34,169 bases of DNA from Syntrophomonadaceae bacterium (GTDB lineage: Bacteria > Bacillota > Dethiobacteria > DTU022): contig SLQM01000210.1 of the NCBI GenBank assembly GCA_007131435.1, positions 1-34,169 on the forward strand, given 5' to 3'. Both the position numbers and the translations under genes were made by a program. This document shows, piece after piece, positions 12,951 through 32,678 of the stretch. The notes below the pieces were generated by a model. That model saw only the letters and a list, made by a program, of their open reading frames with translations. It ran no database searches and was not told the origin of the DNA. Each line of letters opens with the position of its first letter. Position 1 is the stretch's first letter.

Positions 12951-12993
12951 AAATGGTTATAAGTGTTCGATATCCAAGTATGAAGGAGCGATT

Positions 12994-14974: not shown

Positions 14975-14977
14975 ACA

Positions 14978-17392: not shown

Positions 17393-17462
17393 GTTAACGC
17401 CCCCTATGATCAGCGGTAAAGCTTAATTTAATATATTTAGTATAACATATGAATTAATTATT

Positions 17463-17471
17463 TGTTATAAT
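17463..17471 (+). promoter_or_regulatory. Extended -10 promoter (TGtTATAAT) for the activase/hypD operon, within a 102-bp divergent control region
   Basis: TGTTATAAT at 17463-17471 matches TGnTATAAT exactly, about 24 nt upstream of the GTG start at 17495. The -35 element is weak (TAACAT). Confidence 0.5.
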
Positions 17472-17494
17472 TAGTAATGAGGTGTACATAACTG

Positions 17495-18391: not shown

Positions 18392-18394
18392 CTT

Positions 18395-20776
18395 ATGGTC
18401 GTTGCTGAGAGAGGTATAACTGAGCGAGTAAAAAAATTACGGCATCAGAGCGAGAATACTGCCCCATCAATTACAATAGAAAGAGCCCAACTGGTAACGG
18501 AAGCATACCGTGAAAATGCTGATTCAGTTTCTGCGCCCGTATTGCGTGCACTAACTTTTAAGCATCTAATGGAGAATAAAGCTGTTTGCATCAATGAAGG
18601 GGAATTGATCGTGGGCGAGAGGGGACCAAAACCTCAATCTGCACCAACTTATCCCGAACTGTGCTGCCATACTGTAGAAGATCTTGATTTAATAAGTAAG
18701 CGAAATAAAATTGCTTTCCAGGTAAGCGATGAAGTGAAGAATGCGCAGGAAAAAGAGATAATTCCTTTCTGGAAAGGGCGTTCCATGCGTGATAAAATTT
18801 TTAAACGCATGAATAACAATTGGCATGCCTGTTATAAAGCTGGAATATTTACCGAATTCATGGAACAACGGGCGCCAGGCCATACAGTGGCCGGGGATAA
18901 AATATACAAGCTGGGCATGCTCGATATTAAAGAAGAGATCAATGCTGAGCTTCTGGCTATGGATTATACAAACGACCAGGATGCTTATGCCAAAGCTGAG
19001 CAGCTTAAGGCTATGGCAATTTGTGCTGATGCATTAATCACCTATGCCCGCAGACATGCCGTAAGGGCAAGAGAAATGGCCGCTGTCGAAAGTTCTGCAG
19101 AAAGAACAAGGGAACTTGAGCAGATTGCTACAATTTGTGATCGCGTTCCCGCTGCTGCACCGGAAACTTTATGGGAAGCATTGCAGTATTACTGGTTTGT
19201 TCACCTGGGGGTAATAACTGAGCTTAATACGTGGGATGCATTTTGCCCTGGCAGGCTTGATCAACATTTAGAGCCCTTCTATCAGAAAGATTTAAAAGAA
19301 AGCAGGCTCACAACATATTCTGCTAAAGAGCTGTTGCAGTGTTTTTGGATTAAATTCAATAACCAGCCGGCGCCACCTAAAGTTGGCATTACTTTGAAAG
19401 AGAGCGGTACTTACACGGATTTTGCTAATATCAACCTTGGCGGATTACGCCCCGATGGTAAAGACGGCGCAAATGATGTCACTTACCTTCTCCTTGAAGT
19501 TATTGATGAAATGCGACTCTTGCAGCCCAGCTCCAATATCCAGGTCAGCAAAAAGAACCCCGATCTGTTTATTAAGAAAGCAGCGCATATTATCCGGAAG
19601 GGTTGGGGGCAACCATCTGTTTTTAATGTAGAAGCAGTAATTATTGAGCTATTACGGCAGGGTAAAACACTTGTTGACGCCCGCAGCGGTGGAACCAGCG
19701 GTTGTGTTGAAACTGGTGCGTTCGGTAAAGAAAGTTATATACTAACCGGTTATTTTAACCTGACCAAGGTTTTGGAAATCACCCTGAATAACGGGGTTAA
19801 CCCGGCAGATGGAACTCTGCTTGGCATTGAAACAGGCAACCCAAGATATTTTAAAAACTTTGATCAACTGCTATCAGCGTTTGAGAGGCAGTTGAACTAC
19901 TTTATTAATATTAAAATAGAAGGAAATCAAATTATTGAAAAGCTTTATGCAGATCAAATGCCTGCGCCTTTCCTATCGTTAATCATTGATGATTGCATAA
20001 AAAATGCCAGGGATTACAATGCAGGCGGAGCGCGCTACAACACAAACTATATCCAGGGTGTGGGTATAGGAACAATTACAGATTGCCTCTCAGCAATTAA
20101 ATATCATATTTATGACCAAAAAAGGTTTAACTGGGATGAAATGATGTACTGTTTAGATAAGAACTTTGCTGCTAACGAAGTTATGCGGCAGATTTTATTA
20201 AATAAAACACCCCGTTACGGTAATGATGATGATTATGCAGATTCTATTATGCAGCAGGTATTTAAAATCTTTCATGGACTTATTGATGGGCGCAAATCAA
20301 TTAGGGGCGGCACTTATCGTATAAATATGCTTCCTACTACCTGCCATGTTTATTTTGGGTCGGTTATTGGAGCAACTCCGGACGGTAGATTTGCAGGCAA
20401 ACCACTTTCTGAAGGTATTTCACCGGTCCAGGGGGCCGACTTTAAAGGACCTACTGCTGTAATAAAATCTGCTTCGAAGATGGACCACCTTCTAACCGGC
20501 GGTACACTGCTTAACCTTAAATTTTCTCCCGCCGTTCTTGAAGGGGAGAAAGGGCTTAACAGCCTTGTGCATTTAATCAGGAGTTACTTCAGGATGGATG
20601 GACATCATATCCAGTTTAACGTGGTAGATGCTGATACTTTAAGAAAGGCACAAAATAATCCTGAAGAGTACCGCAACTTAATTGTGAGGGTAGCCGGTTA
20701 CAGTGATTATTTCAGCAATCTTAACGAGGAGCTACAAAATGAAATAATAGCTAGAACTGCTCATGCTAAATTGTAG
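18395..20776 (+). CDS. hypD: trans-4-hydroxy-L-proline dehydratase (glycyl radical enzyme HypD)
   Basis: Long blocks match my recollection of Clostridioides difficile HypD (FTEFMEQRAPGHTV, NTWDAFCPGRLDQH, FNNQPAPPKVGITLKESGTYTDFANI, GGTSGCVETGAFGKESYILTGY, MLPTTCHVYFG, DGHHIQFNV). The Gly-radical motif LIVRVAGYSDYF has its Gly at codon 768. Cys437 and Glu439 are offset by +3 from the C. difficile numbering. Confidence 0.92.
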   Translation: MVVAERGITERVKKLRHQSENTAPSITIERAQLVTEAYRENADSVSAPVLRALTFKHLMENKAVCINEGELIVGERGPKPQSAPTYPELCCHTVEDLDLISKRNKIAFQVSDEVKNAQEKEIIPFWKGRSMRDKIFKRMNNNWHACYKAGIFTEFMEQRAPGHTVAGDKIYKLGMLDIKEEINAELLAMDYTNDQDAYAKAEQLKAMAICADALITYARRHAVRAREMAAVESSAERTRELEQIATICDRVPAAAPETLWEALQYYWFVHLGVITELNTWDAFCPGRLDQHLEPFYQKDLKESRLTTYSAKELLQCFWIKFNNQPAPPKVGITLKESGTYTDFANINLGGLRPDGKDGANDVTYLLLEVIDEMRLLQPSSNIQVSKKNPDLFIKKAAHIIRKGWGQPSVFNVEAVIIELLRQGKTLVDARSGGTSGCVETGAFGKESYILTGYFNLTKVLEITLNNGVNPADGTLLGIETGNPRYFKNFDQLLSAFERQLNYFINIKIEGNQIIEKLYADQMPAPFLSLIIDDCIKNARDYNAGGARYNTNYIQGVGIGTITDCLSAIKYHIYDQKRFNWDEMMYCLDKNFAANEVMRQILLNKTPRYGNDDDYADSIMQQVFKIFHGLIDGRKSIRGGTYRINMLPTTCHVYFGSVIGATPDGRFAGKPLSEGISPVQGADFKGPTAVIKSASKMDHLLTGGTLLNLKFSPAVLEGEKGLNSLVHLIRSYFRMDGHHIQFNVVDADTLRKAQNNPEEYRNLIVRVAGYSDYFSNLNEELQNEIIARTAHAKL

Positions 20777-20822
20777 TTATTTAAATATTTAACTTAAAAT
20801 TTGCATACAATTATTTAAATAA
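20777..20822. repeat. Two copies of TTATTTAAATA, 34 nt apart, that can form an AU-only 11-bp hairpin; possible weak hypD terminator or protein-binding site
   Basis: Copy 1 lies at 20777-20787 and copy 2 at 20811-20821. The core ATTTAAAT is self-complementary, so 20777-20787 can pair with 20812-20822. AAGATTTTT follows. Confidence 0.3.
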
Positions 20823-20856
20823 AAGATTTTTAGAAGCATACGAGGGGTTATTGAGA

Positions 20857-20885
20857 TTGACAACCAGGTGTAAATAACATAAAAT
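20857..20885 (+). promoter_or_regulatory. Sigma-A type promoter of tRNA-Trp
   Basis: TTGACA (20857-20862), a 17-nt spacer and TAAAAT (20880-20885). The tRNA 5' end lies about 10 nt downstream. Confidence 0.7.
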
Positions 20886-20895
20886 AGCACTGAAA

Positions 20896-20971
20896 AGGGG
20901 AGTAGCTCAACTGGCAGAGCGGCGGTCTCCAAAACCGTAGGCTGCGGGTTCAAGTCCTGTCTCCCCTGCCA
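20896..20971 (+). tRNA. trnW: tRNA-Trp (anticodon CCA), with a genome-encoded 3' CCA
   Basis: The hand-folded cloverleaf has acceptor AGGGGAG/CTCCCCT, D arm GCTC-AACTGGCA-GAGC and anticodon stem GCGGT/ACCGT with loop CTCCAAA. The T arm is GCGGG-TTCAAGT-CCTGT. Discriminator G and CCA occupy 20968-20971, giving 76 nt in total. Confidence 0.9.
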
Positions 20972-20980
20972 TTGATCAAT

Positions 20981-21020
20981 ATGAGATGCTGCAATAAACT
21001 CGCAGCATCTCATTTAAATA
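20981..21020 (+). terminator. Rho-independent terminator after tRNA-Trp
   Basis: ATGAGATGCTGC (20981-20992) pairs perfectly with GCAGCATCTCAT (21002-21013) across a 9-nt loop. TTAAATAT follows. Confidence 0.75.
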
Positions 21021-21277
21021 TGAAATAAAACTTGAAATGCAAAGCCTGGTGGCCGGGTAAAACAATTTGGGCTTAAAAGAATTAGCTTCGAAAAATATAT
21101 TTAATTGCAGTTCTTATAATGTTGGAATATCTAATAAAGTGTTATAAAATATAGAAAGAAAATAGAGAACCACTTAATTGATAATTAAGCTGAACTCAAA
21201 TGCTGCTGGCCGGATTGCAATTGATGCTGCCGGCCTGATTAATGTGGGCATAATAATATAAAGGGAGTGGCTTTTAA

Positions 21278-22468
21278 ATGTCTTCTACAAAAAATATTCT
21301 TGAATTGACAGAAAAACACAGTGCGAGAAATTATATGCCTTTGCCGGTTGTGCTTTCGCATGGTCAAGGTGTTTGGGTTACAGATCCTGAGGGCAACCGC
21401 TACATGGACATGCTTAGCGCTTATTCCGCAATGAATTTCGGCCACCGTCATCCAAGGATTATTGCAGCGCTCAAAAAACAAGCTGACAAAATGACTGTTA
21501 CTTCCAGGGCTTTTCACAACGACCAACTGGGAGAGTTTTGTCAAAAATTATCTGACATGACCGGTAAAGAAATGGTTTTACCAATGAATACAGGCGCTGA
21601 AGCGGTAGAGACTGCTATCAAAGCGGTTCGACGTTGGGCTTACAGGAATAAAGGCATACCAGCAGATCAGGCAGAAATTATTGTTTGTAAAGGTAACTTC
21701 CATGGCAGAACTATTACAATTGTTTCCTTCACTTCAGATACAGCTTACAAGTCTGATTTTGGGCCATTTACACCCGGCTTTAAATTAATAGAATATGGCA
21801 ATATTGAGGCCCTGAGAGAAGCAATTACTCCAAACACAGCAGCATTTTTAGTGGAACCGATCCAGGGCGAGGGAGGTATTATTATTCCTCCGAAAGGCTA
21901 TTTGAAAGAGGCTTATACTTTATGTCACGATAATAATGTAATTTTTATGGCTGACGAAATACAGACCGGATTCGGCCGTACAGGTAAAATGTTTGCCTGT
22001 GACTGGGAAGATGTAACACCTGATATTTATATTCTCGGCAAAGCGTTAGGTGGTGGCGTAATACCAATTTCAGCTGTAACTGCTGACGAGGAAATACTGG
22101 GTGTTTTTGAGCCTGGTTCCCATGGTTCGACATTTGGAGGCAATCCTTTGGCCTGTGCAGTTTCGATTGAAGCAATGAATGTTTTGGTAGAAGAAAAACT
22201 TGTTGAAAAATCTGCCAAACTTGGCTCCTATTTTGTCGAACAGTTAAAAACTATAAATAACCCTGTTATAACTGAAGTCAGGGGCAAAGGCCTGATGGTG
22301 GGAATAGAACTAAAAGGAAAAGCCAGGCCCTATTGTGAAAAATTAATGGAATTAGGCGTCCTGGCCAAAGAAACTCATGAAAATGTTATTCGACTTGCAC
22401 CACCACTTGTTATTAGCAGTGAAGATTTGGAAAAAGCCCTTACCTTAATTAGGGCGGTTTTTGAATGA
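21278..22468 (+). CDS. rocD: Ornithine--oxo-acid aminotransferase (ornithine delta-aminotransferase)
   Basis: The protein is near-collinear with my recollection of Bacillus subtilis RocD ([95 protein letters not shown]). An AAGGGAG RBS is present. Confidence 0.93.
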
Positions 22469-22502
22469 ACTAAACTAAATTAAAAAAATATTACAAAATG
22501 TA

Positions 22503-22531
22503 TTGACAAGTCTAAATAGATGATCAATAAT
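22503..22531 (+). promoter_or_regulatory. Candidate promoter for the structured intergenic RNA
   Basis: TTGACA (22503-22508), a 17-nt spacer and AATAAT (22526-22531). The predicted start site lies a few nt before the 5' arm of the closing helix at 22539. Confidence 0.45.
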
Positions 22532-22538
22532 ACCTTTA

Positions 22539-22825
22539 CCAGGTTCCGAGAGACTGGACTACAAGCCGGATTTGCATCAACGGGTAAACCGAAGTGGAGG
22601 AAGGGCTTACCGAAATCCGTGTAAGGATTATCCCGGGTGGCAAATCGCAAAAGGGCAAGATTTGGAAGGACCCCAGGGTTTGGAAAAATTGAGCCCGGAT
22701 GAACGGGGATTAGTAGCGATCTGGAGGTTGAGTGAAGGCCATCCGGAGGTGGTGGTGGAAGCTCAGCTGTAGATGGAGTCGTGAAGAAGTTCCGTTGGCG
22801 AGTGGAAAGGCCTGTTGGAACCTGG
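22539..22825 (+). ncRNA. Unassigned structured RNA of about 290 nt (G-rich and GGA-rich, closed by a terminal helix); class unknown and strand tentative
   Basis: CCAGGTTCC (22539-22547) pairs with GGAACCTGG (22817-22825). Internal helices include CGGATTT (22567-22573) with AAATCCG (22613-22619), and CAAATC (22641-22646) with GATTTG (22659-22664). A third, GGTTGAG (22726-22732) with CTCAGCT (22762-22768), contains G.U pairs that would be C.A mismatches on the minus strand. The segment is GC-richer than the flanking AT-rich spacer, and no credible ORF lies inside it. Confidence 0.45.
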
Positions 22826-22868
22826 ATTTATTATGTACAATTATAAATGCTTTATTAATAGCGGTTAA

Positions 22869-22897
22869 TTGACACTGAATACCTGTCAGTGTATAAT
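22869..22897 (+). promoter_or_regulatory. Consensus sigma-A promoter of the NuoEF-like/dehydrogenase operon, with an embedded inverted repeat (candidate operator)
   Basis: TTGACA (22869-22874), exactly 17 nt, then TATAAT (22892-22897). The arms ACACTGA (22872-22878) and TCAGTGT (22886-22892) form a perfect 7-bp inverted repeat separated by 7 nt, overlapping both hexamers. Confidence 0.75.
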
Positions 22898-22973: not shown

Positions 22974-25358
22974 ATGGCAAAAACAGAACTTATTGAATCA
23001 ATAATCAGTCGGCACAATTTTGACACTGCAAACCTGATTATGATTTTACAGGATACGCAGGAAGTTTTTAACTACTTACCACCGGATGCTTTAGAATATA
23101 TTTCAAACAGATTGGAAATCCCCAAGTCACAAATATATTCAATAGCTACATTTTTTAAGTCATTCTCCTTAACACCCCGGGGAAAGCACAAAATAGATAT
23201 ATGTGAAGGCACTGCCTGTCATATCAGGGGTGCCTCTCTTTTGTTAAGCTCCGTTACGGAGGAGTTTAACATTAAAGAGGGGGAAACTTCCCCCGATGGT
23301 TTGTTTTCCTTAAATTCTGTGCACTGTGTGGGCGCTTGCGCTATGGGTCCTGTAGCAATCATTGATGGCGAGTATCATGGTAATATAACTTCTTCCAGCC
23401 TGGTTAAAAAAATAAAACAATGCTGCGCCGAAGAACATTGCGTTGAAAATAAATCGAAGCAATTATCCAGCCAGGAAGTGGTACCAGAAAACAGGGATCT
23501 GCTAACCGGGGTAAAAAGTTTTGATGACTATAACAAGCTTAGAGAAAAGTTGACAGCAAAGTATAAAGCAATAAATAACAGGATCCTGGTTTGTACCGGA
23601 ACAGGTTGCCTGGCAAAGGGAAGTATCAAGGTGGCTCATGCCCTGACCAGGGAACTTGATAGTAAAAATTTTAATATTCCGGTTCATATCGGGGTAAAAA
23701 AAGTTGGCTGTCACGGATTATGTGAGCAGGGACCGCTAGTAATCATACATCCTGAAAATATTTGCTACACAAAGGTCAATGAAAAAGATGTTAAAGAAAT
23801 TATTGAAGAAACTTACATTAACAAAACAGTTGTTGAAAGACTCTTATATCGAGATTCAGCCGATTCACCGGCGATTGAAAAATACACTGATATACCATTT
23901 TATTCCAGCCAGGTGAAAATTGCCCTACGTAACGTGGGGGAAATTGATCCTGCAAACATTGCTGACTACATAGCTTGTGGAGGATACGGCGCTCTAAAAA
24001 AAGTTTTACAGGATATGCAACCCGAAGCCGTAATTGACAAAATTGACAAGTCCGGCCTGAGGGGCAGGGGTGGAGGCGGTTTCCCGGCAGGTAAAAAATG
24101 GCGAACTGCTGCTGCAGTAAATTCTGATCTAAGATATGTGATCTGCAACGGTGATGAGGGAGACCCCGGTGCCTTTATGGATTGCAGCATAATGGAAGGT
24201 GATCCACATGCTGTTCTGGAAGGTATGGCAATATGTGCATACGCCATCAGGGCAGAGCAGGGATACATATATGTTCGTGAAGAATACCCCCGTGCATTAA
24301 TCCGCATGCAGCAGGCAATTGAACAGGCACTGGAAAGTGGTTTCCTGGGCGACAATCTATTTGGCACAGATTTTTCTTTTAAAGTAAAGATAAATAGGGG
24401 TGCAGGAGCTTTTGTTTGCGGTGAATCAACTGCCTTAATGCAATCTGTAGAGGGTAAAGTAGGAGAGCCAAGGGCAAAATATATCAGGTCAGCAGAGCGG
24501 GGGCTTTACGATAAGCCTACAGTGCTTAATAATGTTGAAACATTTGCAAATGTCCCCATTATAATAGATAAAGGTGTACAGTGGTTTAGAAGCTACGGAT
24601 CTGACAACAGTAAAGGAACCAAAGTTTTTTCTGTTGTCGGTAAAGTAAAAAATACCGGCCTTGTTGAAGTGCCGATGGGCACAACGTTAAGAAATATTAT
24701 TTATGATATTTGTGGAGGCATTATTGATGGTGGAAGATTTAAGGCCGTGCAAACAGGAGGCCCTTCAGGAGGCTGCCTGCCGGCTGAAAAACTTGATCTA
24801 CCTGTTGATTTCGACAGCCTGACCCGGGAAGGTTCGATGATGGGTTCCGGCGGGATGATCGTTATGGACGAACACACCTGCATGGTAGATGTGGCTAGAT
24901 ATTTTACTGATTTTTTGACCAGTGAATCCTGTGGCAAATGCGCCGCCTGTCGACTTGGGCTTGAACAAGTCCATGCTATCCTCGATCGTATCTGCAAGGG
25001 AAAAGGTGTTGCAGGTGACCTTGATAATATAGAAAAACTACTGCACACATTACAGCACGGATCTTTATGCGGCCTGGGAAAATCGGCGCCCAATCCGGTT
25101 CGGAGCACATTGGACCATTTTAAAGATGAATACATAGCACATATTGAAGAGAAAAAATGTCCTGCCGGTGTATGTCGCGAGTTAATTTCTTATAAAATAG
25201 AAGATAGCTGTACAGGCTGCCGGAGATGTGCCAGATCATGCCCCCAGGGTGCAATTAGTGGCGAGAAGAAATTGTTGCATATTATAGACCAGGATTTATG
25301 CAACCGCTGCGGCATCTGCATAACTCTGTGTAATTTTGATGCTATAACAGTTGATTAA
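22974..25358 (+). CDS. Fused NuoE-like/NuoF-like NADH-binding flavoprotein (HydC+HydB-like, BfuBC-type) with a C-terminal 2x[4Fe-4S] ferredoxin domain
   Basis: A NuoE-type [2Fe-2S] domain is present (CEGTACHIRGA ... CVGACAMGP), followed by a second thioredoxin-like [2Fe-2S] domain (VCTGTGCLAKG ... GCHGLCEQGP). NuoF FMN and NADH motifs follow (GLRGRGGGGFPAGKKW, CNGDEGDPGAFMD), then the N3 cluster motif ESCGKCAACRLG. The C-terminus carries CTGCRRCARSCPQGAI and CNRCGICITLCNFDAI. Confidence 0.88.
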   Translation: MAKTELIESIISRHNFDTANLIMILQDTQEVFNYLPPDALEYISNRLEIPKSQIYSIATFFKSFSLTPRGKHKIDICEGTACHIRGASLLLSSVTEEFNIKEGETSPDGLFSLNSVHCVGACAMGPVAIIDGEYHGNITSSSLVKKIKQCCAEEHCVENKSKQLSSQEVVPENRDLLTGVKSFDDYNKLREKLTAKYKAINNRILVCTGTGCLAKGSIKVAHALTRELDSKNFNIPVHIGVKKVGCHGLCEQGPLVIIHPENICYTKVNEKDVKEIIEETYINKTVVERLLYRDSADSPAIEKYTDIPFYSSQVKIALRNVGEIDPANIADYIACGGYGALKKVLQDMQPEAVIDKIDKSGLRGRGGGGFPAGKKWRTAAAVNSDLRYVICNGDEGDPGAFMDCSIMEGDPHAVLEGMAICAYAIRAEQGYIYVREEYPRALIRMQQAIEQALESGFLGDNLFGTDFSFKVKINRGAGAFVCGESTALMQSVEGKVGEPRAKYIRSAERGLYDKPTVLNNVETFANVPIIIDKGVQWFRSYGSDNSKGTKVFSVVGKVKNTGLVEVPMGTTLRNIIYDICGGIIDGGRFKAVQTGGPSGGCLPAEKLDLPVDFDSLTREGSMMGSGGMIVMDEHTCMVDVARYFTDFLTSESCGKCAACRLGLEQVHAILDRICKGKGVAGDLDNIEKLLHTLQHGSLCGLGKSAPNPVRSTLDHFKDEYIAHIEEKKCPAGVCRELISYKIEDSCTGCRRCARSCPQGAISGEKKLLHIIDQDLCNRCGICITLCNFDAITVD

Positions 25359-25377
25359 TAAATTGGAAGGACCACAT

Positions 25378-28300
25378 ATGACCGAATATATAACTCTAAG
25401 TGTTGACGGGCGTATCCTAAAAGCTGAGAAGGGAACAATGCTGCTCAATATTTTAAACGATAATGAAATATTTATTCCCCAATTATGCAACCATCCGTCA
25501 CTACCACCGAGCGGATCATGCAGGTTGTGCTCAGTAGAAATTACAAAGGATGATTGGAATGGAAATTCAAAAATAGTAACATCATGTCTCTACCCTGCTG
25601 AAGATAAGCTGAAAATATCAACTCGTTCAAAAGATGTGCTTGAGTTACGAAGAAGCCTCCTCGGGCTATACATGGCTCGCTGCCCGGATTCAGAGACAAT
25701 TAAGGACCTGGCCCGCTTAGAGGGAGTAGACGAAACTCCGTATACCTTAAAAGAGGGTGGAGATAATTGCATTCTTTGCGGTCTCTGTACAAGGGTATGC
25801 CAGGATAGCGGCCCGGGAGCTATTTCGACACTGAGCCGGGGCATAGAAAAAATTGTGGGACCAGATATAACTACAGTTGCTGATCAATGTACAGGTTGTC
25901 GGGCATGTACTCATATATGCCCTACCGATGCAATACCTTTTACCCAGGAAAACAAAGTTTATGAAATATGGAACCGCAAATTTGAAATTCCCGTTTGCTC
26001 TGTTAACCCTGATAATTGCCGGGGTTGCGGGATTTGTGAAGAAGTATGCCCTTACAGCATACCACGTGTAACACTATACAAAACAGGTTTGAGCACTGCA
26101 ACTATTTCCGAAACTGCCTGCACAGGTTGTGGCATTTGTGCCGGCAGCTGCCCGACCGGCACAATAGAACAAAGCATCACGGACAACCTCGATCATTATT
26201 ATGATTTGTTTTTTAAGACCGACTTATCCGGTAAAACGGTTGTTTTCAGTTGTCCCAGGTCTCCAATGCCCGTTGAAGAGGAGACAGTTGTTCAAGTCAG
26301 CTGTATCGGGAATGTTGATCTTTCCATGATCCTTTACCCGCTGGCTGCAGGGGCCAGGGCAGTAGGGTTAATGTGCAGGGATAAACTTAGCTGCCCCTAT
26401 ATGCTTGGGGGAAATCTTGGAGAAGAAAAAATAGGCGTTGCTAAAGAACTGCTCTCCTACTGCGGGCTTGATGAGGATAGAATAGCCCTGCTTAACCCAG
26501 ACTATGGCCAGGATGGTCCAAAAAAGGCGTGGAATGATTTTCTGAAAAGAGCGCAGCTTTTATCTCCAACTGTGATTGATATATTTCCTGTCAGTAACAA
26601 TCAAGAGCGAGGACTGGATTTTGCTTTAAGTATTGTAAATTGGTTAAAAAGCGGTAAGGAATCTGAACCGGTTATACCGGATGAACTTAAAGTACTTTTT
26701 ACCAAGGACGATTTGCAGAGCACAGCTATTCTATACCTCGATAATCTTCCTGAAATACATCTGATGCTTCCTTTATTAACAAATGAAAAGCTTGTTTACG
26801 ATTATTTAAGATTCGCATCAGATGCTTTAAAACAGCTGGACATAAAGGTCAAACCTGCTTGCAGTGAAAAGGAAGTTGAAGAAAGCGAAATAACCAAAGT
26901 TATCGCTTTTAATCCTTATCCCGAAGGAAAAATGGAAAGCGGTAAAAAATATATTTCAATAAATGAACTGGCTGGAGTTAAAGACAAAGTAAAAGAAACA
27001 ATCCGCTTTTCTTTTAGCCTGGATCATGTCGAACGTAAAAAATTGATTGATCAGTTAATTGCCAGCGACGATGTGCTGTTTGTAAACAATCTTAGCCTTT
27101 ACCTGCAGTATGGACTGCTAATGCGTGAGGGTGCGTGGCAGCAAACACATAAAAAGTACCTTGTGCCAAAGTTTGCCTCAGCAACTAAAGATTTCAAGGG
27201 TGAAGAAATCAGAATTGGTAAGTCACTGCGCATAGATAATCATCCAATCCTTCCTGATATGGCAAAAAAAGAACTTTCTTTTTCATTTAACGGTTCACAT
27301 TTCAGCGCATGGGAAGGCGAAGTAATTACCTCTGCTCTATATGCAGCGGGTGTAACAGTTTTTGGCCATCATCACCGCGATGGCGGTGCCCAGGGAATAT
27401 ACTGCGTGAACGGGCAATGTTCCCAATGCATGGTAATTGCTGATGGTAAACCGGTCAAAGGATGTATGACGCCGGTAATTGAAGGCATGCAAGTTGAAAG
27501 CGTTGAGGGTTTGCCAAGGTTAAGAGACGATAGCCCTTTGCAAAATTTTAAACCGTTACCGGAAGAATACGAAGTAGAGGTCCTGATCATCGGCGGAGGA
27601 CCTGCCGGTATAAGTGCCGCAATTGAGTTGGGAACTGCAGGCGCTGATGTATTGGTGGTTGATGATAAGCAGGAACTTGGTGGAAAGCTGAGTCTACAGA
27701 CCCACAACTTTTTCGGTTCTGTAAAAGACTGTTATGCAGGAGATCGCGGAATTGATATCGGCTATACACTGGCAGATAAAATGCTTAAACAGCCAACTGT
27801 TGAAACCTGGCTCAATGCAACGGTAGTTGGTGTCTACAGTGATGGAAAATTCGGTGTTTCTATAAACGGATCTTACAGACTCGTAAAAGCTGCAAAAATA
27901 CTCTTCAGTACAGGAGCGCGTGAGAAAACGCTGTCAATACCTGGGTGCGACCTTCCCGGAGTGTACGGCGCAGGAGCTTTTCAAACTCTTGTGAACAGGG
28001 ATCTGGTTAAATGTGCTGAAAAGCTTTTTATAATTGGCGGCGGCAATGTCGGTTTAATCGGCGCTTATCATGCCTTGCAGGCAGGGATAGATGTTGTCGG
28101 ACTGGTTGAAGCCCTTCCCCAGTGCGGCGGCTACAAAGTGCACGAAGATAAAATTAAACGTTTAGGCGTTCCTGTTATGACATCACACACAGTTTTGCGA
28201 ATTGAGGGCAAAGAAAAGGCTGAAAGAGTTATTATTGCTGCTGTAGACAAAAACTTTATTCCTCAGCAGGGAACAGAAAGAATATTTGATGTTGACACGG

Positions 28301-29322
28301 TTTTGATGGCTGTAGGTTTAAGCCCGGTAGATGAACTCTATGAAAAGGCTAAAGAATACGGTCTGGATGTTTATGTTGCTGGCGATGCTGAAGAGATTGC
28401 AGAAGCTTCGGCAGCAATTTTTTCCGGCAAAATAACAGGACGAAAAATTGCCCAGTCCCTGGGTTATGATTTCCCAATCCCAGGTAATTGGGAGGAATTT
28501 GGCGAAATCTTAAAACATCACTCTACAGAGATTGAAGAGTTTAAAGCAAAACATATAGATCAAGATGTTTACCCAATCATCCGATGCGTCCAGGAAATAC
28601 CCTGTAACCCCTGTACAGAGGCCTGTCCGAAGAACTGCATTACTATGAAAAATTCTATCCTGGATATTCCAGAATTCGGTGAAGAATGCATCGGCTGCGC
28701 AAATTGTCTTTTAGCCTGCCCCGGCCTGGCTATTAACCTAATGGTTGAAGATTTTGATCCGTTAAAAGAAAGCTCCTTGATAATCATGCCTTATGAATTT
28801 CACATTAATAATATACCTCTTGGCCAGGAAGTAATCACTGCCGGCTTTGAAGGAGAAGTTATCGGTAAAGGGCGGGTTTTAGCTTACAAGCAAAGAGGAA
28901 GTCAAAATAAAAGGGCCCTGGTTTTACTGGAAGTTCCTTATGAAGACAGGTTAAAAGTAGCCGGCTTTAAAATCAGGGATGAAGACCAGGGCCGCCCGTA
29001 TACCACTGATTTACCTGAAGATGATCCAATTGTATGCCGCTGCGAGAGGGTAAGAAAAAGTGAAATAGTCAATGCTATACGAAGTGGGGTTAAAGATCTG
29101 AACCAGCTCAAAGCACAAATCAGAACAGGGCTTGGAGGTTGCAACGGCAAAACCTGTTTTGATCTTATCCTCAGAATTTACAGGGAACAGGGGATACCAC
29201 TTTCAGAATTAACTATGCCCACTCACAGGCCATTGGTAGCAGAAGTCCATCTTGGTGATTTTATTTCTGCCGATTCAACAAGAATAGCTGTTGACGCAGG
29301 GGAGGCAGACAATGCCAGTTAA
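25378..29322 (+). CDS. 1314-aa multidomain Fe-S flavoprotein combining [2Fe-2S], polyferredoxin, MvhD-like, an unknown domain of about 255 aa, and a proline-dehydrogenase/opine-oxidase/HcnAB-like alpha module
   Basis: I chose the ATG at 25378, after GGAAGG (25366-25371). The ORF-track TTG at 25351 overlaps the upstream stop. Motifs in order:
- plant/NuoG-type [2Fe-2S] (CNHPSLPPSGSCRLCSVE ... SC);
- four Cys clusters (CILCGLCTRVC, CTGCRACTHICP, CRGCGICEEVCP, CTGCGICAGSCP);
- an MvhD-like block (VVFSCPRS ... VSCIGNVDLSMILYPLAAGARAVGLMCRDKLSCPY);
- a HcnA/SoxA-type [2Fe-2S] (GIYCVNGQCSQCMV ... GC);
- FAD and NAD Rossmann folds (VLIIGGGPAGISAA, LFIIGGGNVGLIGA);
- CNPCTEACPKNC and CIGCANCLLACP;
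- a BFD-like [2Fe-2S] (CRCERV ... GGCNGKTC). Confidence 0.85.
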   Translation: MTEYITLSVDGRILKAEKGTMLLNILNDNEIFIPQLCNHPSLPPSGSCRLCSVEITKDDWNGNSKIVTSCLYPAEDKLKISTRSKDVLELRRSLLGLYMARCPDSETIKDLARLEGVDETPYTLKEGGDNCILCGLCTRVCQDSGPGAISTLSRGIEKIVGPDITTVADQCTGCRACTHICPTDAIPFTQENKVYEIWNRKFEIPVCSVNPDNCRGCGICEEVCPYSIPRVTLYKTGLSTATISETACTGCGICAGSCPTGTIEQSITDNLDHYYDLFFKTDLSGKTVVFSCPRSPMPVEEETVVQVSCIGNVDLSMILYPLAAGARAVGLMCRDKLSCPYMLGGNLGEEKIGVAKELLSYCGLDEDRIALLNPDYGQDGPKKAWNDFLKRAQLLSPTVIDIFPVSNNQERGLDFALSIVNWLKSGKESEPVIPDELKVLFTKDDLQSTAILYLDNLPEIHLMLPLLTNEKLVYDYLRFASDALKQLDIKVKPACSEKEVEESEITKVIAFNPYPEGKMESGKKYISINELAGVKDKVKETIRFSFSLDHVERKKLIDQLIASDDVLFVNNLSLYLQYGLLMREGAWQQTHKKYLVPKFASATKDFKGEEIRIGKSLRIDNHPILPDMAKKELSFSFNGSHFSAWEGEVITSALYAAGVTVFGHHHRDGGAQGIYCVNGQCSQCMVIADGKPVKGCMTPVIEGMQVESVEGLPRLRDDSPLQNFKPLPEEYEVEVLIIGGGPAGISAAIELGTAGADVLVVDDKQELGGKLSLQTHNFFGSVKDCYAGDRGIDIGYTLADKMLKQPTVETWLNATVVGVYSDGKFGVSINGSYRLVKAAKILFSTGAREKTLSIPGCDLPGVYGAGAFQTLVNRDLVKCAEKLFIIGGGNVGLIGAYHALQAGIDVVGLVEALPQCGGYKVHEDKIKRLGVPVMTSHTVLRIEGKEKAERVIIAAVDKNFIPQQGTERIFDVDTVLMAVGLSPVDELYEKAKEYGLDVYVAGDAEEIAEASAAIFSGKITGRKIAQSLGYDFPIPGNWEEFGEILKHHSTEIEEFKAKHIDQDVYPIIRCVQEIPCNPCTEACPKNCITMKNSILDIPEFGEECIGCANCLLACPGLAINLMVEDFDPLKESSLIIMPYEFHINNIPLGQEVITAGFEGEVIGKGRVLAYKQRGSQNKRALVLLEVPYEDRLKVAGFKIRDEDQGRPYTTDLPEDDPIVCRCERVRKSEIVNAIRSGVKDLNQLKAQIRTGLGGCNGKTCFDLILRIYREQGIPLSELTMPTHRPLVAEVHLGDFISADSTRIAVDAGEADNAS

Positions 29323-30487
29323 CAAAAATATATACGATGTGATTATCATAGGCTGTGGAAGTGTAGGTAACCCGACAGCATATCAGTTAGCTGAAGCGGG
29401 ATTAAGTGTTTTGGCAATAGACAGGCGCTCATCAGCAGGACAGGGTGATAATAAGACCGCGATTGGCGGTGTAAGGGCCACACACTCAGACCCAGGGAAA
29501 ATATCAACCTGCCTTTATAGTATTGACATATTCTCCTCATGGAATGAAAAATACGGGTTTGATATAGGATGGAAGCCTGGCGGTTATTGCTTCCCTGTAT
29601 ATGACCAGGATATTGAAAGTACATTAAAATCTCTGATACCCTACCAGAAAGAATGTGGGATGAAAATAGATTGGGTAGATGCTGAAACAATTAAAAATAT
29701 TATCCCCGGGATAAATGAAAATGATCTCCGCGGTGGAACTTATTCACCGGATGACGGCCAGGTTTCATCGATCCTGGCACCAATCGCATTTCAAAAGGAA
29801 GCTGAAAAGAACGGTGCAGTTTATCTATTTAATGAGCGGGTAACAGGTTATGAGCGTAAGGGGGATAGAATCGTAGGAGTTATTACCGACAAGGGTAAAT
29901 ATTATGCAGAATGGGTGGTTCTGGCTGCCGGATCAGACGCCGCAGAACATGGGCCGATGCTTGGAATAGATATACCGGTTACACCTGATGCGCATGAAGC
30001 TGGAATTTCTGCCCCTGTTGAACATTTTTTAGCTCCGCTGATTGTTGATCTGAGGGCAGGTGTGGATGGTAAAACCTCTAACTTTTATTTTGGGCAAAAC
30101 AAGGAAGGCCAGATAATATTTTGTTATACACCAAAAGATCTGTTTATCGGTACAGACAGGGAATCATTATCTGAATTTTTACCAATTCTTGCCCGACGCA
30201 TGGTTTCATTGATTCCGAGGTTAAAAAACCTTTTAATCAGAAGAATATGGCGCGGATGCTACCCGATGAGCCCGGATGGGGTTCCTATAATAGATTATGC
30301 ACCAGGTATCGAGGGATTAATCTTAGCAGTGGGAATGTGTGGACAGGGCTTAATGCTCGGCCCTGGTGTGGGCAAGAATATAACATCAATGATAACCAGC
30401 GGCTGTTCCTGCATCAGTTCTGAAGCACAAAACTGTTTTAGGTACGACAGGGATTTCTATCAAAAAGAGACTGAAACCCTCAAGTAG
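29312..30487 (+). CDS. FAD-dependent amine/imino-acid oxidoreductase (DAO family; sarcosine-oxidase-beta / L-proline-dehydrogenase-beta / D-hydroxyproline-dehydrogenase-like catalytic subunit)
   Basis: The N-terminal dinucleotide fold YDVIIIGCGSVGNPTAYQLAEAGLSVLAIDR and a C-terminal GMCGQGLMLGPGVG block are present. I chose the ATG at 29312, 6 nt after GGGGAGG (29299-29305). It overlaps the upstream stop by 11 nt, which suggests translational coupling. The ORF-track start is 29291. Confidence 0.85.
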   Translation: MPVNKNIYDVIIIGCGSVGNPTAYQLAEAGLSVLAIDRRSSAGQGDNKTAIGGVRATHSDPGKISTCLYSIDIFSSWNEKYGFDIGWKPGGYCFPVYDQDIESTLKSLIPYQKECGMKIDWVDAETIKNIIPGINENDLRGGTYSPDDGQVSSILAPIAFQKEAEKNGAVYLFNERVTGYERKGDRIVGVITDKGKYYAEWVVLAAGSDAAEHGPMLGIDIPVTPDAHEAGISAPVEHFLAPLIVDLRAGVDGKTSNFYFGQNKEGQIIFCYTPKDLFIGTDRESLSEFLPILARRMVSLIPRLKNLLIRRIWRGCYPMSPDGVPIIDYAPGIEGLILAVGMCGQGLMLGPGVGKNITSMITSGCSCISSEAQNCFRYDRDFYQKETETLK

Positions 30488-30546: not shown

Positions 30547-30580
30547 AAAGCCTGTTTTAGCAGAACAAACAGGTTTTTAT
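30547..30580 (+). terminator. Rho-independent terminator of the dehydrogenase operon
   Basis: CCTGTTT (30551-30557) pairs with AAACAGG (30567-30573) across a 9-nt loop. AAAAG lies upstream and TTTTTATTAT follows. Confidence 0.75.
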
Positions 30581-30585
30581 TATGC

Positions 30586-30650: not shown

Positions 30651-31457
30651 ATGGATAATATCGGGTTAATCGGATGTGGAGCAATGGGTTCGGCCCTGGC
30701 AAAAGGAATGGTATTGAGAGGAGGCATTAAGCCGGACAATATCTACTTGTTTGACTTGAATAAAGAGCGCCAGGAACTTCTGTCAAATGAGCTTAATACG
30801 CATTCCGCAAGTGACTATTCGGAACTGGTTAAAAACTGTAAACATATTTTTATCGCAGTAAAACCACAGGATAGTGAAGGGCTGCTTTATTCTATTAAAC
30901 CTGGTATAGGAAATGAACATATATTAATATCAATTGCAGCTGGCATTACAATTAATTTTATTGAGAGCTGTTTATTTCCGGGGGCTAAAATAATTCGGCT
31001 TATGCCGAATACGCCATGCCTGATTGGCGAAGGAACAATTGTTATCAGCACCGGAGACACAATATCTGATCAGGAATTCAAGGCGGTTAATAAGCTTTTA
31101 AAACCTCTTGGTTTGGCTATTCGGATGCCTGAATACTTGATGGATGCCGCAACAGGTCTAAGCGGTACAGGACCTGCATATGTTTTTCTGTTTATCGAAA
31201 CGATGATCGATGCCGGGGTGGCTGTAGGAATCAGGCGCGATGTTGCCTCACGACTTGTTATTCAAAATGTAATTGGTTCGGCACGCATGCTGGAAGAAAA
31301 CATTACCCATCCTGCAGAGCTTAGAAATACTGTTACTTCTCCTGCCGGTACCACATCGACTGCAATGCAGGTTTTAGAAGAGAATGGATTTCGAAGCTGC
31401 CTGCTAAAAGCCGTAATTGCTGCTACTAAACGTTCTGAAGAACTGCGTCGTGGATAA
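30651..31457 (+). CDS. proC: Pyrroline-5-carboxylate reductase
   Basis: The Rossmann motif IGLIGCGAMGSALAKG is present, with P5CR blocks (AVKPQD, RLMPNTPCLIGEG, LSGTGPAYVFLFIE, VTSPAGTT). Confidence 0.93.
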   Translation: MDNIGLIGCGAMGSALAKGMVLRGGIKPDNIYLFDLNKERQELLSNELNTHSASDYSELVKNCKHIFIAVKPQDSEGLLYSIKPGIGNEHILISIAAGITINFIESCLFPGAKIIRLMPNTPCLIGEGTIVISTGDTISDQEFKAVNKLLKPLGLAIRMPEYLMDAATGLSGTGPAYVFLFIETMIDAGVAVGIRRDVASRLVIQNVIGSARMLEENITHPAELRNTVTSPAGTTSTAMQVLEENGFRSCLLKAVIAATKRSEELRRG

Positions 31458-31493: not shown

Positions 31494-32678
31494 ATGAAAA
31501 GGTTCCATGAAGCTTTAGCTGGCGATTTACCAATGCTGGTTGATACAACACTGAGAGATGGGGAGCAGACAGCCGGAGTTGTATTTTCAAACCGGGAAAA
31601 ATTAAGAATAGCAAAAATGCTGGATAATCTTGGTGTTCACCAGATAGAAGCTGGCATTCCCGTCATGGGGGGCGACGAAAAAGAAGTTATAAAAGAGCTT
31701 GTATCTTATAAATTGAAAGCCAGTATAATGGCCTGGAACAGGGCAAACATCGAAGACATCAAGCATTCTATGGACTGTGGTGTAGATGCAGTTGCCATAT
31801 CTATTTCTACTTCGGACATACATATCACCCACAAATTAAAAACATCGAGAGAATGGGTCCTGGATAATATGACCAAGGCAGTAGAATTTGCTAAAAAACA
31901 GGGTTTTTATATATCTGTAAATGCAGAAGATGCATCGCGCAGTGATTTTGATTTTTTAGTAGAATTTGCTAACCGTGCGAAGCAAGCAGGTGCAGACAGG
32001 CTTAGATTTTGTGACACCATTGGAGTATTAGAGCCTTTTAAAACTTACCAGGTAATCACTGACTTGATCAAAAATACCGGTATAGCTGTAGAAATGCACA
32101 CGCATAATGACTTTGGTATGGCTACAGCAAATTCGCTTGCCGGTCTTAAAGCGGGAGCCCGTTTTATTGGCGTAACTGTAAACGGCCTCGGTGAACGAGC
32201 AGGCAATGCTGCGCTTGAAGAGGTTGCCATGGCCTTAAAGCATTTATTCGGGGTTAATCTTGGTGTAAACACAAAAGACTTCCGTAACTTATGTGAATAT
32301 GTAGCCAGGGCTTCCGGCAGGCAGCTTTATCCATCAAAACCGATCGTTGGAACGAATACTTTTGCCCATGAATCTGGAATTCATGCCGATGGGGTTCTAA
32401 AAAACCCGGAGACATACGAGGTATTCAGCCCTGAAGATGTTGGCCTGGAAAGACAGATAGTAATCGGAAAACATTCTGGTTCAAAAGCAATAAAGATGAA
32501 ATTTGTCGAATACGGTATAGATCTATCCGATGAAGAAGCAGCAGACTTGCTGGCAGCAGTAAGATCCGTAACGGTAGATCTAAAGCGAACACTCTTCGAT
32601 AAGGAGCTTATGTATATTTATGAAGACTATCTTTATGAAAAGAAACTTGCTCCATCCACCAGTAAGGAGGAAACTTAA
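31494..32678 (+). CDS. Homocitrate synthase / short citramalate-isopropylmalate-synthase family enzyme (NifV-like, DRE-TIM metallolyase, no LeuA regulatory domain)
   Basis: Family blocks are present ([66 protein letters not shown]). The protein is 394 aa. A GGGAGG RBS is present, and no terminator separates it from proC. Confidence 0.8.

Follow-up and report, generated by a model that had tools for sequence, protein, structure and literature searches.

A Bfu-Type Electron-Bifurcation Module Predicted to Be Fused to a Proline-Dehydrogenase-Type Flavoenzyme in an Uncultured Soda-Lake Anaerobe

Results

The stretch of DNA analyzed here, called the window, comprises 34,169 nucleotides (nt) (positions 1–34,169 of the forward strand of contig SLQM01000210.1, assembly GCA_007131435.1) from a Syntrophomonadaceae bacterium (Bacillota; Dethiobacteria; DTU022), an uncultured soda-lake anaerobe. 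Domain and ligand assignments indicate that a three-gene operon in the window encodes a complete BfuABC electron-bifurcation set physically fused to a proline-dehydrogenase-type enzyme, and this combination of a Bfu core with a proline-dehydrogenase-type flavoenzyme is new to the literature. The complex probably links pyrroline-5-carboxylate (P5C), derived from hydroxyproline and ornithine, to NADH and ferredoxin. Taken with its architecture, substrate, direction and stoichiometry together, the reading tentatively favored here is a soluble Bfu-type complex that may couple the reduction of P5C to proline with NADH-driven reduction of ferredoxin.

Gene 1 (22974–25358, + strand) encodes a 794-residue BfuC-BfuB fusion, which would hold the NAD(H)/FMN and ferredoxin-reactive core. 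Gene 2 (25378–29322, +), starting at an ATG behind a GGAAGG ribosome-binding site, encodes 1314 residues in which BfuA is followed by electron-transfer domains and by gamma-alpha-delta-BFD parts of the proline-dehydrogenase type. Gene 3 (29312–30487, +) encodes a 391-residue beta subunit with a DAO fold. Genes 1 and 2 are separated by 19 nt, and genes 2 and 3 share 11 nt (ATGCCAGTTAA).

The Bfu-Type Core

Domain calls for the window proteins were made with Pfam and NCBIfam, and every domain claimed in an earlier account of this DNA made from its letters alone (the sequence-only reading) was recovered. The first part of gene 1 (22974–23453, +) is a BfuC (HydC/NuoE-like) thioredoxin-like [2Fe-2S] domain (PF01257, residues 7–149, 4e-56) with the cluster C1 ligands Cys77, Cys82, Cys118 and Cys122. 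The BfuB part (23574–25355, +) was assigned from domain calls, structure-chain alignment and ligand conservation. Gene 1 further contains a second [2Fe-2S] ferredoxin domain at about residues 211–291 (B5 [2Fe-2S] ligands Cys207, Cys212, Cys246 and Cys250), the FMN/NAD site (Complex1_51K, PF01512, 357–528), an SLBB domain (PF10531, 551–600), an NADH_4Fe-4S domain (PF10589, 639–723) with the B1 [4Fe-4S] ligands Cys653, Cys656, Cys659 and Cys699, and a 2x[4Fe-4S] domain (Fer4/Fer4_7, 741–792) with B3 and B4 within residues 746–786. At the B2 site, C636, C674, H723, C729 and C734 aligned with C438, C476, H525, C531 and C536 of A. mobile HydB. In the published definition, BfuB combines an FMN-binding Nuo51 domain, an SLBB domain, the NuoF [4Fe-4S] region and a C-terminal 4Fe-4S ferredoxin-type domain, BfuC is the NuoE-type thioredoxin-like [2Fe-2S] subunit carrying C1, and BfuA is a subunit with [2Fe-2S] and 4Fe-4S ferredoxin domains (Schut et al., 2022; PMC9304861).

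Residues 202–791 of gene 1 aligned, with no large gap, with B subunits from bifurcating complexes of known structure. The scores for eight such full-length chains ranged from 644 to 726 bits, namely A. woodii HydB (7q4v_B, 726 bits), A. mobile NiFe-HydB (7t2r_B, 724), T. kivui HydB (8a6t_B, 712), the B subunit of WOR-Bfu (9mqx_B, 709), NfnB (9bov_B and 9n5u_B, 684 and 649), T. maritima HydB (7p5h_B, 646) and StnB (8oh5_B, 644), whereas the non-bifurcating FdsB and Nqo1 gave 391 and 387 bits. Ligands were surveyed in 34 gene 1 homologues linked to a proline-dehydrogenase alpha gene (48–83% identity). The cysteines of B1, B3, B4 and B5 and the His/Cys ligands of B2 were invariant, except at the position of C674, which was C in 29 sequences, T in three, A in one and V in one; Cys/Thr variation at this position also occurs in most BfuB sequences. 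All four C1 cysteines were kept in 29 of 29 homologues with a fused BfuC, the exceptions being those in which BfuC was a separate gene. Non-bifurcating homologues are without the B2–B5 sites, including a near-universal His (PMC9304861), and later structures placed Zn in the B2 site and described B1-FMN-C1 as the minimal bifurcation center (PMC11829005). The conservation of ligands in gene 1 stands whether the B2 site holds Zn or a cluster.

A respiratory NuoE/NuoF identity was rejected, because gene 1 missed the equivalog cut-offs (TIGR01959, 469 versus 559 bits; NF008436, 364 versus 749), carries extra N- and C-terminal cluster domains, and has no nuo genes beside it in the protein annotation of the window. 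The suggestion in the sequence-only reading of a HydB/HydC-type bifurcating module rather than respiratory NuoEF was therefore upheld by the scores (644–726 against about 390 bits) and by the retention of the B1–B5 and C1 ligands. Judged by sequence, gene 1 has all the domains, ligands and scores expected of BfuB and BfuC, and it is predicted to form a BfuBC core with an FMN/NAD(H) site, a B1-FMN-C1 center and ferredoxin-docking B3/B4 clusters as in the solved homologues.

BfuA and the Predicted Electron Wire

The beginning of gene 2 (25378–26004, +) was recognized as a BfuA module by phmmer and Foldseek, with the A1 [2Fe-2S] ligands Cys37, Cys48, Cys51 and Cys70 and two [4Fe-4S] sites at residues 131–141 and 171–181. 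A Fer2_4 domain covers residues 5–100, and four CxxCxxCxxxC motifs lie between residues 131 and 258. Residues 4–209 matched 9mqx_A, the 247-residue BfuA of bifurcating WOR, at 1e-36 in phmmer, and an AlphaFold2 (AF2) model (predicted local distance difference test, pLDDT, 84.5) matched the same chain in Foldseek with E = 3e-16, TMt 0.75, a root-mean-square deviation of 2.1 Å and 34% identity. No His-ligated cluster was found in this module, whose cluster content appears Type 2-like and nearest to the Type 2 BfuA of WOR-Bfu. With a BfuA at the N terminus of gene 2, the BfuABC set would be complete. The MvhD-like domain, polyferredoxin stretch and cofactor set noted earlier for genes 2 and 3 were borne out, but the N-terminal BfuA had been overlooked.

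The following segment (25996–26496, +) contains an HdrA-C-terminal-type 2x[4Fe-4S] ferredoxin domain (residues 214–258) and an MvhD/FlpD-like domain (Cys292, Cys309, Cys333 and Cys339); positions 572–746 of the NCBIfam model HdrA2 matched residues 207–371, and PF02662 (FlpD/MvhD) matched residues 303–373. It is followed by a connector domain (26497–27267, +; residues ~374–630) with an alpha/beta fold and almost no Cys, modeled by AF2 with pLDDT 87.5 and a predicted TM-score (pTM) of 0.85. The connector matched no Pfam family and no fold in the PDB (best E = 0.11, TM ≤ 0.22 in Foldseek), and was the least conserved stretch of the gene 2 protein in the family alignment. A known fold, such as a hidden flavin or nucleotide domain, would have pointed to a second bifurcation site, but with this confident model Foldseek returned nothing below E = 0.1. 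A Foldseek search with the whole N-terminal half of gene 2 returned BfuA/NuoG-type matches only. A stand-alone homologue of that half (P0094) was also observed, with neighbors other than Bfu or DAO genes.

The remainder of gene 2 (27268–29178, +) resembles the electron-transfer half of a proline dehydrogenase, with gamma, alpha, delta and BFD-like parts assigned from Pfam, phmmer and collinearity with separate genes at a related locus (L083). The gamma-like [2Fe-2S] motif C676-x4-C681-x2-C684-x11-C696 (Fer2_4, residues 631–710) was unchanged in 58 sequences, and the Fe-S cysteines of residues 1–720 were all invariant across these 58 family members. The alpha part has FAD/dinucleotide domains at residues 730–1030 (Pyr_redox_2, 734–991) with the motifs GGGPAG and GGGNVG, and matched 1y56_A (8e-18) and the SoxA chain 2gag_A in phmmer. 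A delta-like 2x[4Fe-4S] domain lies at residues 1070–1114 (Fer4 call at ~1070–1121). The BFD-like [2Fe-2S] motif C1220-x-C1222-x32-C1255-x4-C1260 falls within a BFD domain (PF04324, 1218–1267, 5.5e-8), and its x32 spacer exceeds the published range of x(15–20). After BfuA, gene 2 is predicted to form a wire of about ten further Fe-S clusters together with an alpha-type FAD.

Gene 2 scored below all curated family cut-offs (soxA TIGR01372, 131 versus 1164 bits; HdrA2, 87 versus 1100). The sequence-only reading held that routine annotation of this protein would count against it; no NCBIfam cut-off was reached, and so gene 2 does not encode an enzyme that annotation names routinely. Its identification with glutamate synthase, Hdr, sarcosine oxidase or NuoG was rejected in each case, the NCBIfam matches lying far under the cut-offs. 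The same applied to a SoxABDG complex, for which soxB (TIGR01373) gave 99 versus 529 bits in addition to the low soxA score, and soxD and soxG genes were absent. An HdrA/MvhD module was rejected because only the C-terminal ferredoxin and the MvhD-like part match HdrA2 and the window has no CCG-domain genes.

The Putative Catalytic Subunit

Gene 3 matched DAO (PF01266) over residues 9–359 at 1e-55 and contains the motifs G14-C-G-S-V-G19 (GxGxxG) and R311-I-W313 (the R-x-W FMN motif). Its closest solved relative was clearly 1y56_B, the beta subunit of P. horikoshii L-proline dehydrogenase (2e-42, 149 bits), whereas dimethylglycine, sarcosine and glycine enzymes matched at 1e-19 or worse (≤74 bits); 1y56_A was likewise among the closest solved relatives of the alpha part. 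The family of heteromeric alpha-beta-gamma amine dehydrogenases includes archaeal L-proline dehydrogenase (L-ProDH), the D-hydroxyproline dehydrogenase (D-HypDH) LhpBEF, opine dehydrogenase (OpnDH) and HCN synthase, and is characterized by two GxGxxG motifs, C-x4-C-x2-C-x11-12-C, C-x-C-x(15–20)-C-x4-C and R-x-W (Watanabe et al., 2015; PMC4575208). A motif scan against this list found all motif types in genes 2 and 3 together, in agreement with the proline-dehydrogenase-type cofactor set that had been proposed for them. Gene 3 is accordingly best described as a putative DAO-type FAD subunit at which a C-N bond would be oxidized or reduced.

Transcription Unit and Distribution

A sigma-70 promoter of the operon, TTGACA-17-TATAAT, at 22869–22897 (+), matched 12 of 12 consensus positions in a consensus scan. 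In 10 aligned related loci, both hexamers of TTGACA-N17/18-TATAAT were unchanged and the flanks were 42% identical, which confirms the consensus promoter placed at 22869 beforehand. Behind gene 3 (30549–30585, +) lies a probable intrinsic terminator, a hairpin (GCCUGUUU...AAACAGGU; −13.2 kcal/mol, z = −2.1) that is flanked by A/U and runs into UUUUAUU. The hairpin and U-tract of the terminator expected near 30547 were thus present, but the structure is weak and was missed by the consensus scan; that it is real is plausible. The three open reading frames and the single transcription unit of the sequence-only reading otherwise held, with the coordinates, the 19-nt gap and the 11-nt overlap as claimed and a promoter conserved across loci.

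Full-length homologues of gene 2 formed ~92 clusters at 90% identity, sharing 51–80% identity and bearing generic names. The best 80 genome loci were surveyed. All 80 came from metagenome-assembled genomes, most of them labeled Syntrophomonadaceae or Bacillota and many obtained from soda-lake sediments. In every Bacillota locus of sufficient length genes 1–3 were kept together. The covalent fusion of BfuA to the alpha part, the overlap of genes 2 and 3 and the joint retention of genes 1–3 support a single physical complex, so far as gene arrangement can indicate.

In other phyla, the alpha-beta pair (55–60% identical) occurred alone or in unfused versions; among these contexts outside Bacillota, ORF calling was noisy in the high-GC loci L053 and L039. 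One such locus (L082, 7687–17529) encodes in a row an unfused BfuB, BfuC, a 1027-residue BfuA/GltD-like FAD/MvhD protein, an HdrD-like CCG protein, a 711-residue alpha subunit and a split DAO beta subunit, preceded by an OadA-like carboxylase subunit. Its additional FAD and CCG proteins are a hint that this variant is closer to Hdr. Since this unfused operon is built from the same parts, the link between Bfu and proline-dehydrogenase-type proteins is not limited to the fused Bacillota form. In L083, gamma, alpha, delta, BFD-like and DAO beta are five separate collinear genes; the products of this canonical operon and the window proteins were 40% identical in the alpha parts and 27% identical in the beta subunits.

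Gene Neighborhood and Substrate

The operon lies among genes for P5C and proline metabolism. A HypD activase and HypD, which converts trans-4-hydroxy-L-proline to P5C, are encoded at 17495–20776 (+); HypD scored 1375 bits against a cut-off of 1100 (NF043068), and the activase reached 340 bits with NF043069, below its cut-off of 425, passing only the generic glycyl-radical activase model TIGR02494 (339 versus 174). The ornithine aminotransferase gene rocD, whose product makes glutamate semialdehyde/P5C, follows at 21278–22468 (+; NF003145, 688 versus 656 bits), and the P5C reductase gene proC lies beyond the terminator at 30651–31457 (+; TIGR00112, 266 versus 197 bits) with its own promoter region. 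A proline-racemase-family protein (12994–14019, +) has Cys (SMCGHG) and Thr (DRSPTGTG) at the catalytic positions, a pair that is the signature of trans-3-hydroxy-L-proline dehydratase; its top NCBIfam match, at 365 bits, was below cut-off. These results confirmed hypD, rocD and proC as neighbors, as well as the Cys/Thr signature of the 3-hydroxyproline dehydratase-type gene. An OCD/mu-crystallin homologue (5273–6253, +), a candidate pyrroline-2-carboxylate (Pyr2C) reductase, could be the matching enzyme and, with the 3-hydroxyproline dehydratase, provide a second route to proline. An amino-acid ABC transporter is also encoded in the window.

The order HypD-rocD-[operon]-proC was maintained in related loci at 55–80% protein identity, and the neighborhood survey proposed with the sequence-only reading showed that the operon co-occurs with hypD, rocD and proC. 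A metagenome scan anchored on a conserved RNA upstream of the operon revealed two states of the locus, rocD-RNA-operon(-proC) and rocD-RNA-proC, the latter in 10 loci without the operon in which proC directly follows the RNA. These two states make the operon an insertion/deletion polymorphism, placed precisely between the gene for the P5C-making RocD and that for the P5C-reducing ProC. Among loci with at least 4.5 kb of upstream sequence, the HypD island was present in 13 of 14 RNA-anchored loci containing the operon and in none of five without it (Fisher p = 5e-4, kinship ignored). L083, without a HypD island, has an arginase, an SSF symporter, the second canonical proline-dehydrogenase-type operon and proC nearby. 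Domain annotation found no P5C dehydrogenase (rocA/putA) in the window or the related loci, and proline is consequently the sole encoded fate of P5C in the window. From this setting we infer that the substrate is probably the P5C/L-proline couple or a close pyrroline-carboxylate, P5C being the product of the HypD and RocD encoded upstream.

The conserved RNA is a structured element of ~290 nt at 22538–22838 (+) with its own promoter at 22503–22531. Rfam yielded no match to it, either at the gathering score or at E ≤ 1. Its minimum free energy was −111.8 kcal/mol (z = −4.2), and in 44 sequences 56 pairs were 95% paired, 30 of them with compensatory changes, a level of pairing and covariation reached by none of 500 shuffles; slid controls were 29–50% paired. 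The RNA promoter, TTGACAA-N-GATCAATAAT, stood at a constant distance from the first base of the closing helix in nearly all loci. The RNA was nearly always downstream of rocD, and upstream either of the Bfu operon or, without an intervening promoter, of proC. In a regular-expression survey of loci, the operon promoter was found wherever the operon comes after the RNA, except in L089, and was lacking in 10 of 10 loci with proC directly after the RNA. A T-box identity was rejected: the closing helix pairs the 5' and 3' ends and a terminator/antiterminator is absent, which makes the RNA unlike a T-box, and Rfam gave no match. The element may serve ornithine/proline genes as a leader or as a regulatory RNA.

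Several further features of these loci were observed. In L083 (5374–7150), the RNA and operon come immediately after genes for IF-2B, an amidohydrolase, SurE and RtcB; in the window ~17 kb (~5270–22470) lie between RtcB and the RNA, with rocD, tRNA-Trp, both glycyl-radical systems, a Liv-type ABC transporter, OCD and a serine-dehydratase-like gene. This segment looks like a hydroxyproline/ornithine utilization island with an internal tRNA-Trp gene, judging from its gene content. The second glycyl-radical enzyme (804 residues) and its own activase (14006–17392, −) are convergent with the 3-hydroxyproline dehydratase-type gene and are kept beside HypD in related loci. The enzyme matched only the generic PFL2-3 model (704 bits), falling short of CutC (692 versus 1050) and HypD (639 versus 1100); it may be a lyase of a hydroxyproline isomer such as HplG. 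On the other side of proC, a NifV/homocitrate-synthase-type gene (31494–32678, +; TIGR02660, 527 versus 463 bits) is the most conserved protein of the neighborhood (83–94% identity) and has no nitrogenase context. We take it to be perhaps a housekeeping enzyme of the Re-citrate-synthase type, and its position beside proC and ROK looks like inherited synteny. In L034 (3078–7088), one of the loci lacking the HypD island, the gene 1 homologue is immediately preceded by a tungsten-type aldehyde:ferredoxin oxidoreductase (AFOR) and a sigma-54 activator, and in L083 (1–160) an AFOR fusion lies a few kb upstream of the operon. In loci without HypD, AFOR might supply reduced ferredoxin or provide a connection to glutamate semialdehyde.

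Discussion

The P5C/proline couple has a potential of about −120 mV, roughly 200 mV above NAD+/NADH. NAD+ and ferredoxin thus cannot take electrons from proline, and the complex should run reductively in vivo. Under the mechanism proposed here, the complex would be a Bfu subtype with a heteromeric proline-dehydrogenase-type flavoenzyme in place of a hydrogenase, formate or NADPH module, and the net reaction would be 2 NADH + Fd(ox) + P5C → 2 NAD+ + Fd(red) + proline, where Fd is ferredoxin. NADH would give a hydride to FMN; one electron would then reach the high-potential imine by way of B1 and the BfuA chain, and the other would reach ferredoxin by way of C1, B3 and B4. If the acceptor at the end of the BfuA branch has a high potential, NADH at the FMN lies between the B1 and C1 exits, which is the canonical geometry of bifurcation (structure in PMC11829005). 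In this way ~38 kJ/mol wasted by ProC would be conserved, and such energy conservation would explain why the machine coexists with ProC. The reaction would also be reversible enough for ferredoxin-driven oxidation of proline. Schut et al. (2022; PMC9304861) give −320 to −280 mV for NADH and about −450 to −500 mV for ferredoxin.

Several observations weigh against this proposal. All validated Bfu enzymes take electrons from a third substrate of mid or low potential (H2, formate, NADPH, aldehyde) and use NAD+ as the acceptor at high potential (PMC9304861; PMC11829005). A Bfu core to which NADH donates at mid potential is without precedent in the family. The claim that this is the first such enzyme, with FMN/B1/C1 splitting electrons between P5C and ferredoxin, is a doubtful one at present. 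The operon group is known from genes alone, and the neighboring ProC already reduces P5C. The synteny evidence was drawn from related genomes with statistics that ignore kinship, and adjacency to proC is partly inherited synteny. About 40% of the Bacillota loci with long flanks have no HypD, rocD or proC nearby, their neighbors being AFOR with a sigma-54 activator or a BenE transporter. Outside Bacillota, the alpha-beta pair adjoins an OadA-like carboxylase subunit and POR genes; no proline genes were found in these contexts, where OadA-like, POR, CCG and two-component genes occur instead, and the proline assignment is therefore neither supported nor replaced by them. Finally, gene 3 reaches no NCBIfam equivalog cut-off, and an opine dehydrogenase whose beta subunit clusters beside L-ProDH does not use proline (PMC4575208), so similarity to L-ProDH alone cannot fix the substrate.

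The architecture allows bifurcation and the combined input of NADH and reduced ferredoxin equally, and we favor bifurcation on physiological grounds. With combined input, the complex would act as a confurcating sink, in which NADH (at FMN) and Fd(red) (through B4, B3 and C1) send four electrons along the BfuA chain to two P5C, giving NAD+, Fd(ox) and two proline, and both reduced pools would be reoxidized without hydrogenase or Rnf. Such a sink would leave the known electron topology of Bfu enzymes unchanged and would be of use at a pH of ~10, which makes the reduction of protons very unfavorable; the many homologues from soda-lake sediment genomes fit it as well. It also corresponds to the interpretation by Schut et al. 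of high-potential Bfu enzymes, Nuo-Bfu (menaquinone) and Rub-Bfu (H2O2) (PMC9304861), but these are predicted enzymes only. Over 300 mV would be dissipated along the ferredoxin branch of a sink, a wasteful loss for anaerobes limited by energy, and because the path from NADH to P5C is downhill, nothing obvious forces the coupling to ferredoxin. For these reasons it is considered unlikely. At the other extreme, the complex might be an NADH-linked enzyme that does not bifurcate, delivering electrons of NADH to the imine or, under another driving force, carrying electrons to NAD+, its ferredoxin-type domains being a structural inheritance. Transfer from NADH to P5C needs no aid, and the sequence criteria for bifurcation are correlative. 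Yet the characterized non-bifurcating homologues have lost B2–B5, which are kept here in 34 homologues at 48–83% identity, and this invariance indicates purifying selection on the ferredoxin branch; moreover, a simple ProC already carries out the NAD(P)H-only reaction. Loss of the ferredoxin function is thus the least probable of the alternatives.

The substrate and the direction may also differ from those proposed. The alpha-beta-gamma family spans HCN synthase and the dehydrogenases of D-hydroxyproline and opines, and its specificity switches when the beta subunit is exchanged (PMC4575208). The complex might act on a different amine, primary or secondary, such as cis-4-hydroxy-D-proline, D-proline/Pyr2C, glycine, an opine, or the sarcosine or dimethylglycine formed from glycine betaine. 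Besides the missed cut-offs of gene 3 and the contexts outside Bacillota, which are not proline-related, the 3-hydroxyproline dehydratase-type enzyme of the window, which makes Pyr2C, its OCD/mu-crystallin protein, and the second beta subunit of the L083 genome, only 27% identical, are in line with such a substrate. Against this stand the score of gene 3 with the L-proline dehydrogenase beta subunit (149 bits, versus ≤74 for sarcosine, dimethylglycine and glycine enzymes), the position of the operon between rocD and proC and its co-variation with HypD, together with surroundings that showed no genes for opines, betaine or sarcosine; another amine therefore seems a lesser prospect than the sink. 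Oxidative operation as an anaerobic proline or hydroxyproline dehydrogenase, Pro + Fd(red) + 2 NAD+ → P5C + Fd(ox) + 2 NADH, with the oxidation of ferredoxin pulling the uphill transfer from proline to NAD+ much as in lactate oxidation by Ldh-EtfAB, was one of the readings put forward in the earlier account and would explain why a dehydrogenase-type beta subunit is present instead of a ProC-type reductase. It is the exact reverse of the favored reaction, for which a net standard free energy of only about −13 to −19 kJ/mol was estimated from standard potentials. But no rocA or putA is encoded in the window or the related loci to carry P5C on to glutamate, and the neighboring genes all make P5C or proline and none consumes proline, which renders proline oxidation as the main function improbable. 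NADH-driven bifurcation to P5C and ferredoxin is retained, tentatively, as the preferred reading.

If it is correct, the reduction of an imine to an amino acid would join the few fermentative reactions that generate or consume reduced ferredoxin, and the step from hydroxyproline or ornithine to proline would conserve energy in alkaliphilic anaerobes. The HypD pathway of hydroxyproline in gut Clostridia would extend to uncultured haloalkaliphilic Bacillota, and the reverse reaction would offer a quinone-independent route of anaerobic proline oxidation. The mechanism of bifurcation in Bfu enzymes is still unsettled, and a third substrate ~200 mV above NADH would provide a natural experiment: FMN/B1/C1 would either work like a classical bifurcating flavin to which NADH donates, or form part of a double-input sink, and either outcome would constrain mechanistic models so far built on H2, formate, NADPH and aldehydes. 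Some 90 clusters of homologues are now named "sarcosine oxidase alpha" or "2Fe-2S cluster-binding protein", and the upstream RNA is a separate lead on the regulation of ornithine and proline genes.

Comparison with Known Systems

The third substrates in the 2022 catalogue of Bfu enzymes are H2, formate, NADP, F420, CO, pyruvate, aldehydes, aryl-CoA, H2O2 and quinone; 17–18 clades are unassigned, and proline, sarcosine and D-amino acids are not mentioned (PMC9304861). Later structural papers on Bfu add no further third substrate, and a literature search found no Bfu, HydBC or NuoF enzyme tied to proline, hydroxyproline, sarcosine or amino-acid dehydrogenases. The view of the sequence-only reading that no characterized enzyme has this architecture is in keeping with that search. 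Its interpretation is upheld for architecture, family membership and genomic association, the in-silico checks it suggested all having turned out favorably and none of its sequence-based grounds for refutation clearly applying. With the known BfuABC enzymes, namely [FeFe]- and [NiFe]-HydABC, NfnABC/Stn and WOR-Bfu (PDB 7q4v, 7t2r, 8a6t, 7p5h, 9bov, 9n5u, 8oh5 and 9mqx), the complex shares the BfuB and BfuC domains, all cluster ligands and a single operon, and for its BfuA, with A1 and two [4Fe-4S] clusters, the nearest counterpart is the Type 2 BfuA of WOR-Bfu (TMt 0.75 at 34% identity). The differences are that BfuC and BfuB form one chain and that BfuA is fused to the HdrA-type ferredoxin, the MvhD-like domain, the connector and the alpha part of the catalytic enzyme. 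The module attached is of the DAO/proline-dehydrogenase type, with a probable couple of about −120 mV, whereas the couples of validated members lie at or below about −380 mV. If the couple is P5C/proline, a potential so far above NADH is matched only by the predicted Nuo-Bfu and Rub-Bfu.

PDH1 (alpha4beta4, 1Y56) and PDH2 (alpha-beta-gamma-delta) of Pyrococcus and Thermococcus share the GxGxxG motif, the gamma- and BFD-type [2Fe-2S] sites, R-x-W and the delta-like ferredoxin with genes 2 and 3. The archaeal enzymes are stand-alone and dye-linked and have no NuoF/Bfu core, whereas here the counterparts of all their accessory subunits form one chain with BfuA; sequence identity is low, beta scoring 149 bits, and the use of proline is predicted from sequence. 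LhpBEF, OdhABC/OoxAB and HcnABC have the alpha-beta-gamma architecture and cofactors (two FAD, FMN and [2Fe-2S]) in common with the complex, and LhpBEF is likewise tied to hydroxyproline catabolism. In contrast, those enzymes come from aerobes, pass electrons to the respiratory chain or dyes, have no NAD(H)/ferredoxin module and act on different substrates.

The logic of the favored model, with NADH at mid potential, an organic acceptor (in reverse, a donor) at high potential and ferredoxin at low potential, is shared with Bcd-EtfAB, caffeyl-CoA reductase-EtfAB and Ldh-EtfAB, but the proteins are unrelated, and bifurcation in Etf takes place at an FAD rather than in a NuoF-type FMN/Fe-S core. 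The closest metabolic parallel is the HypD pathway of Clostridioides difficile and gut Clostridia, in which clustered genes likewise encode HypD and its activase and lead from P5C to proline. There, a plain NAD(P)H-dependent ProC homologue reduces P5C, whereas in the soda-lake anaerobe a predicted complex of 2,499 residues, with ~17 Fe-S sites and up to four flavins, is encoded before proC.

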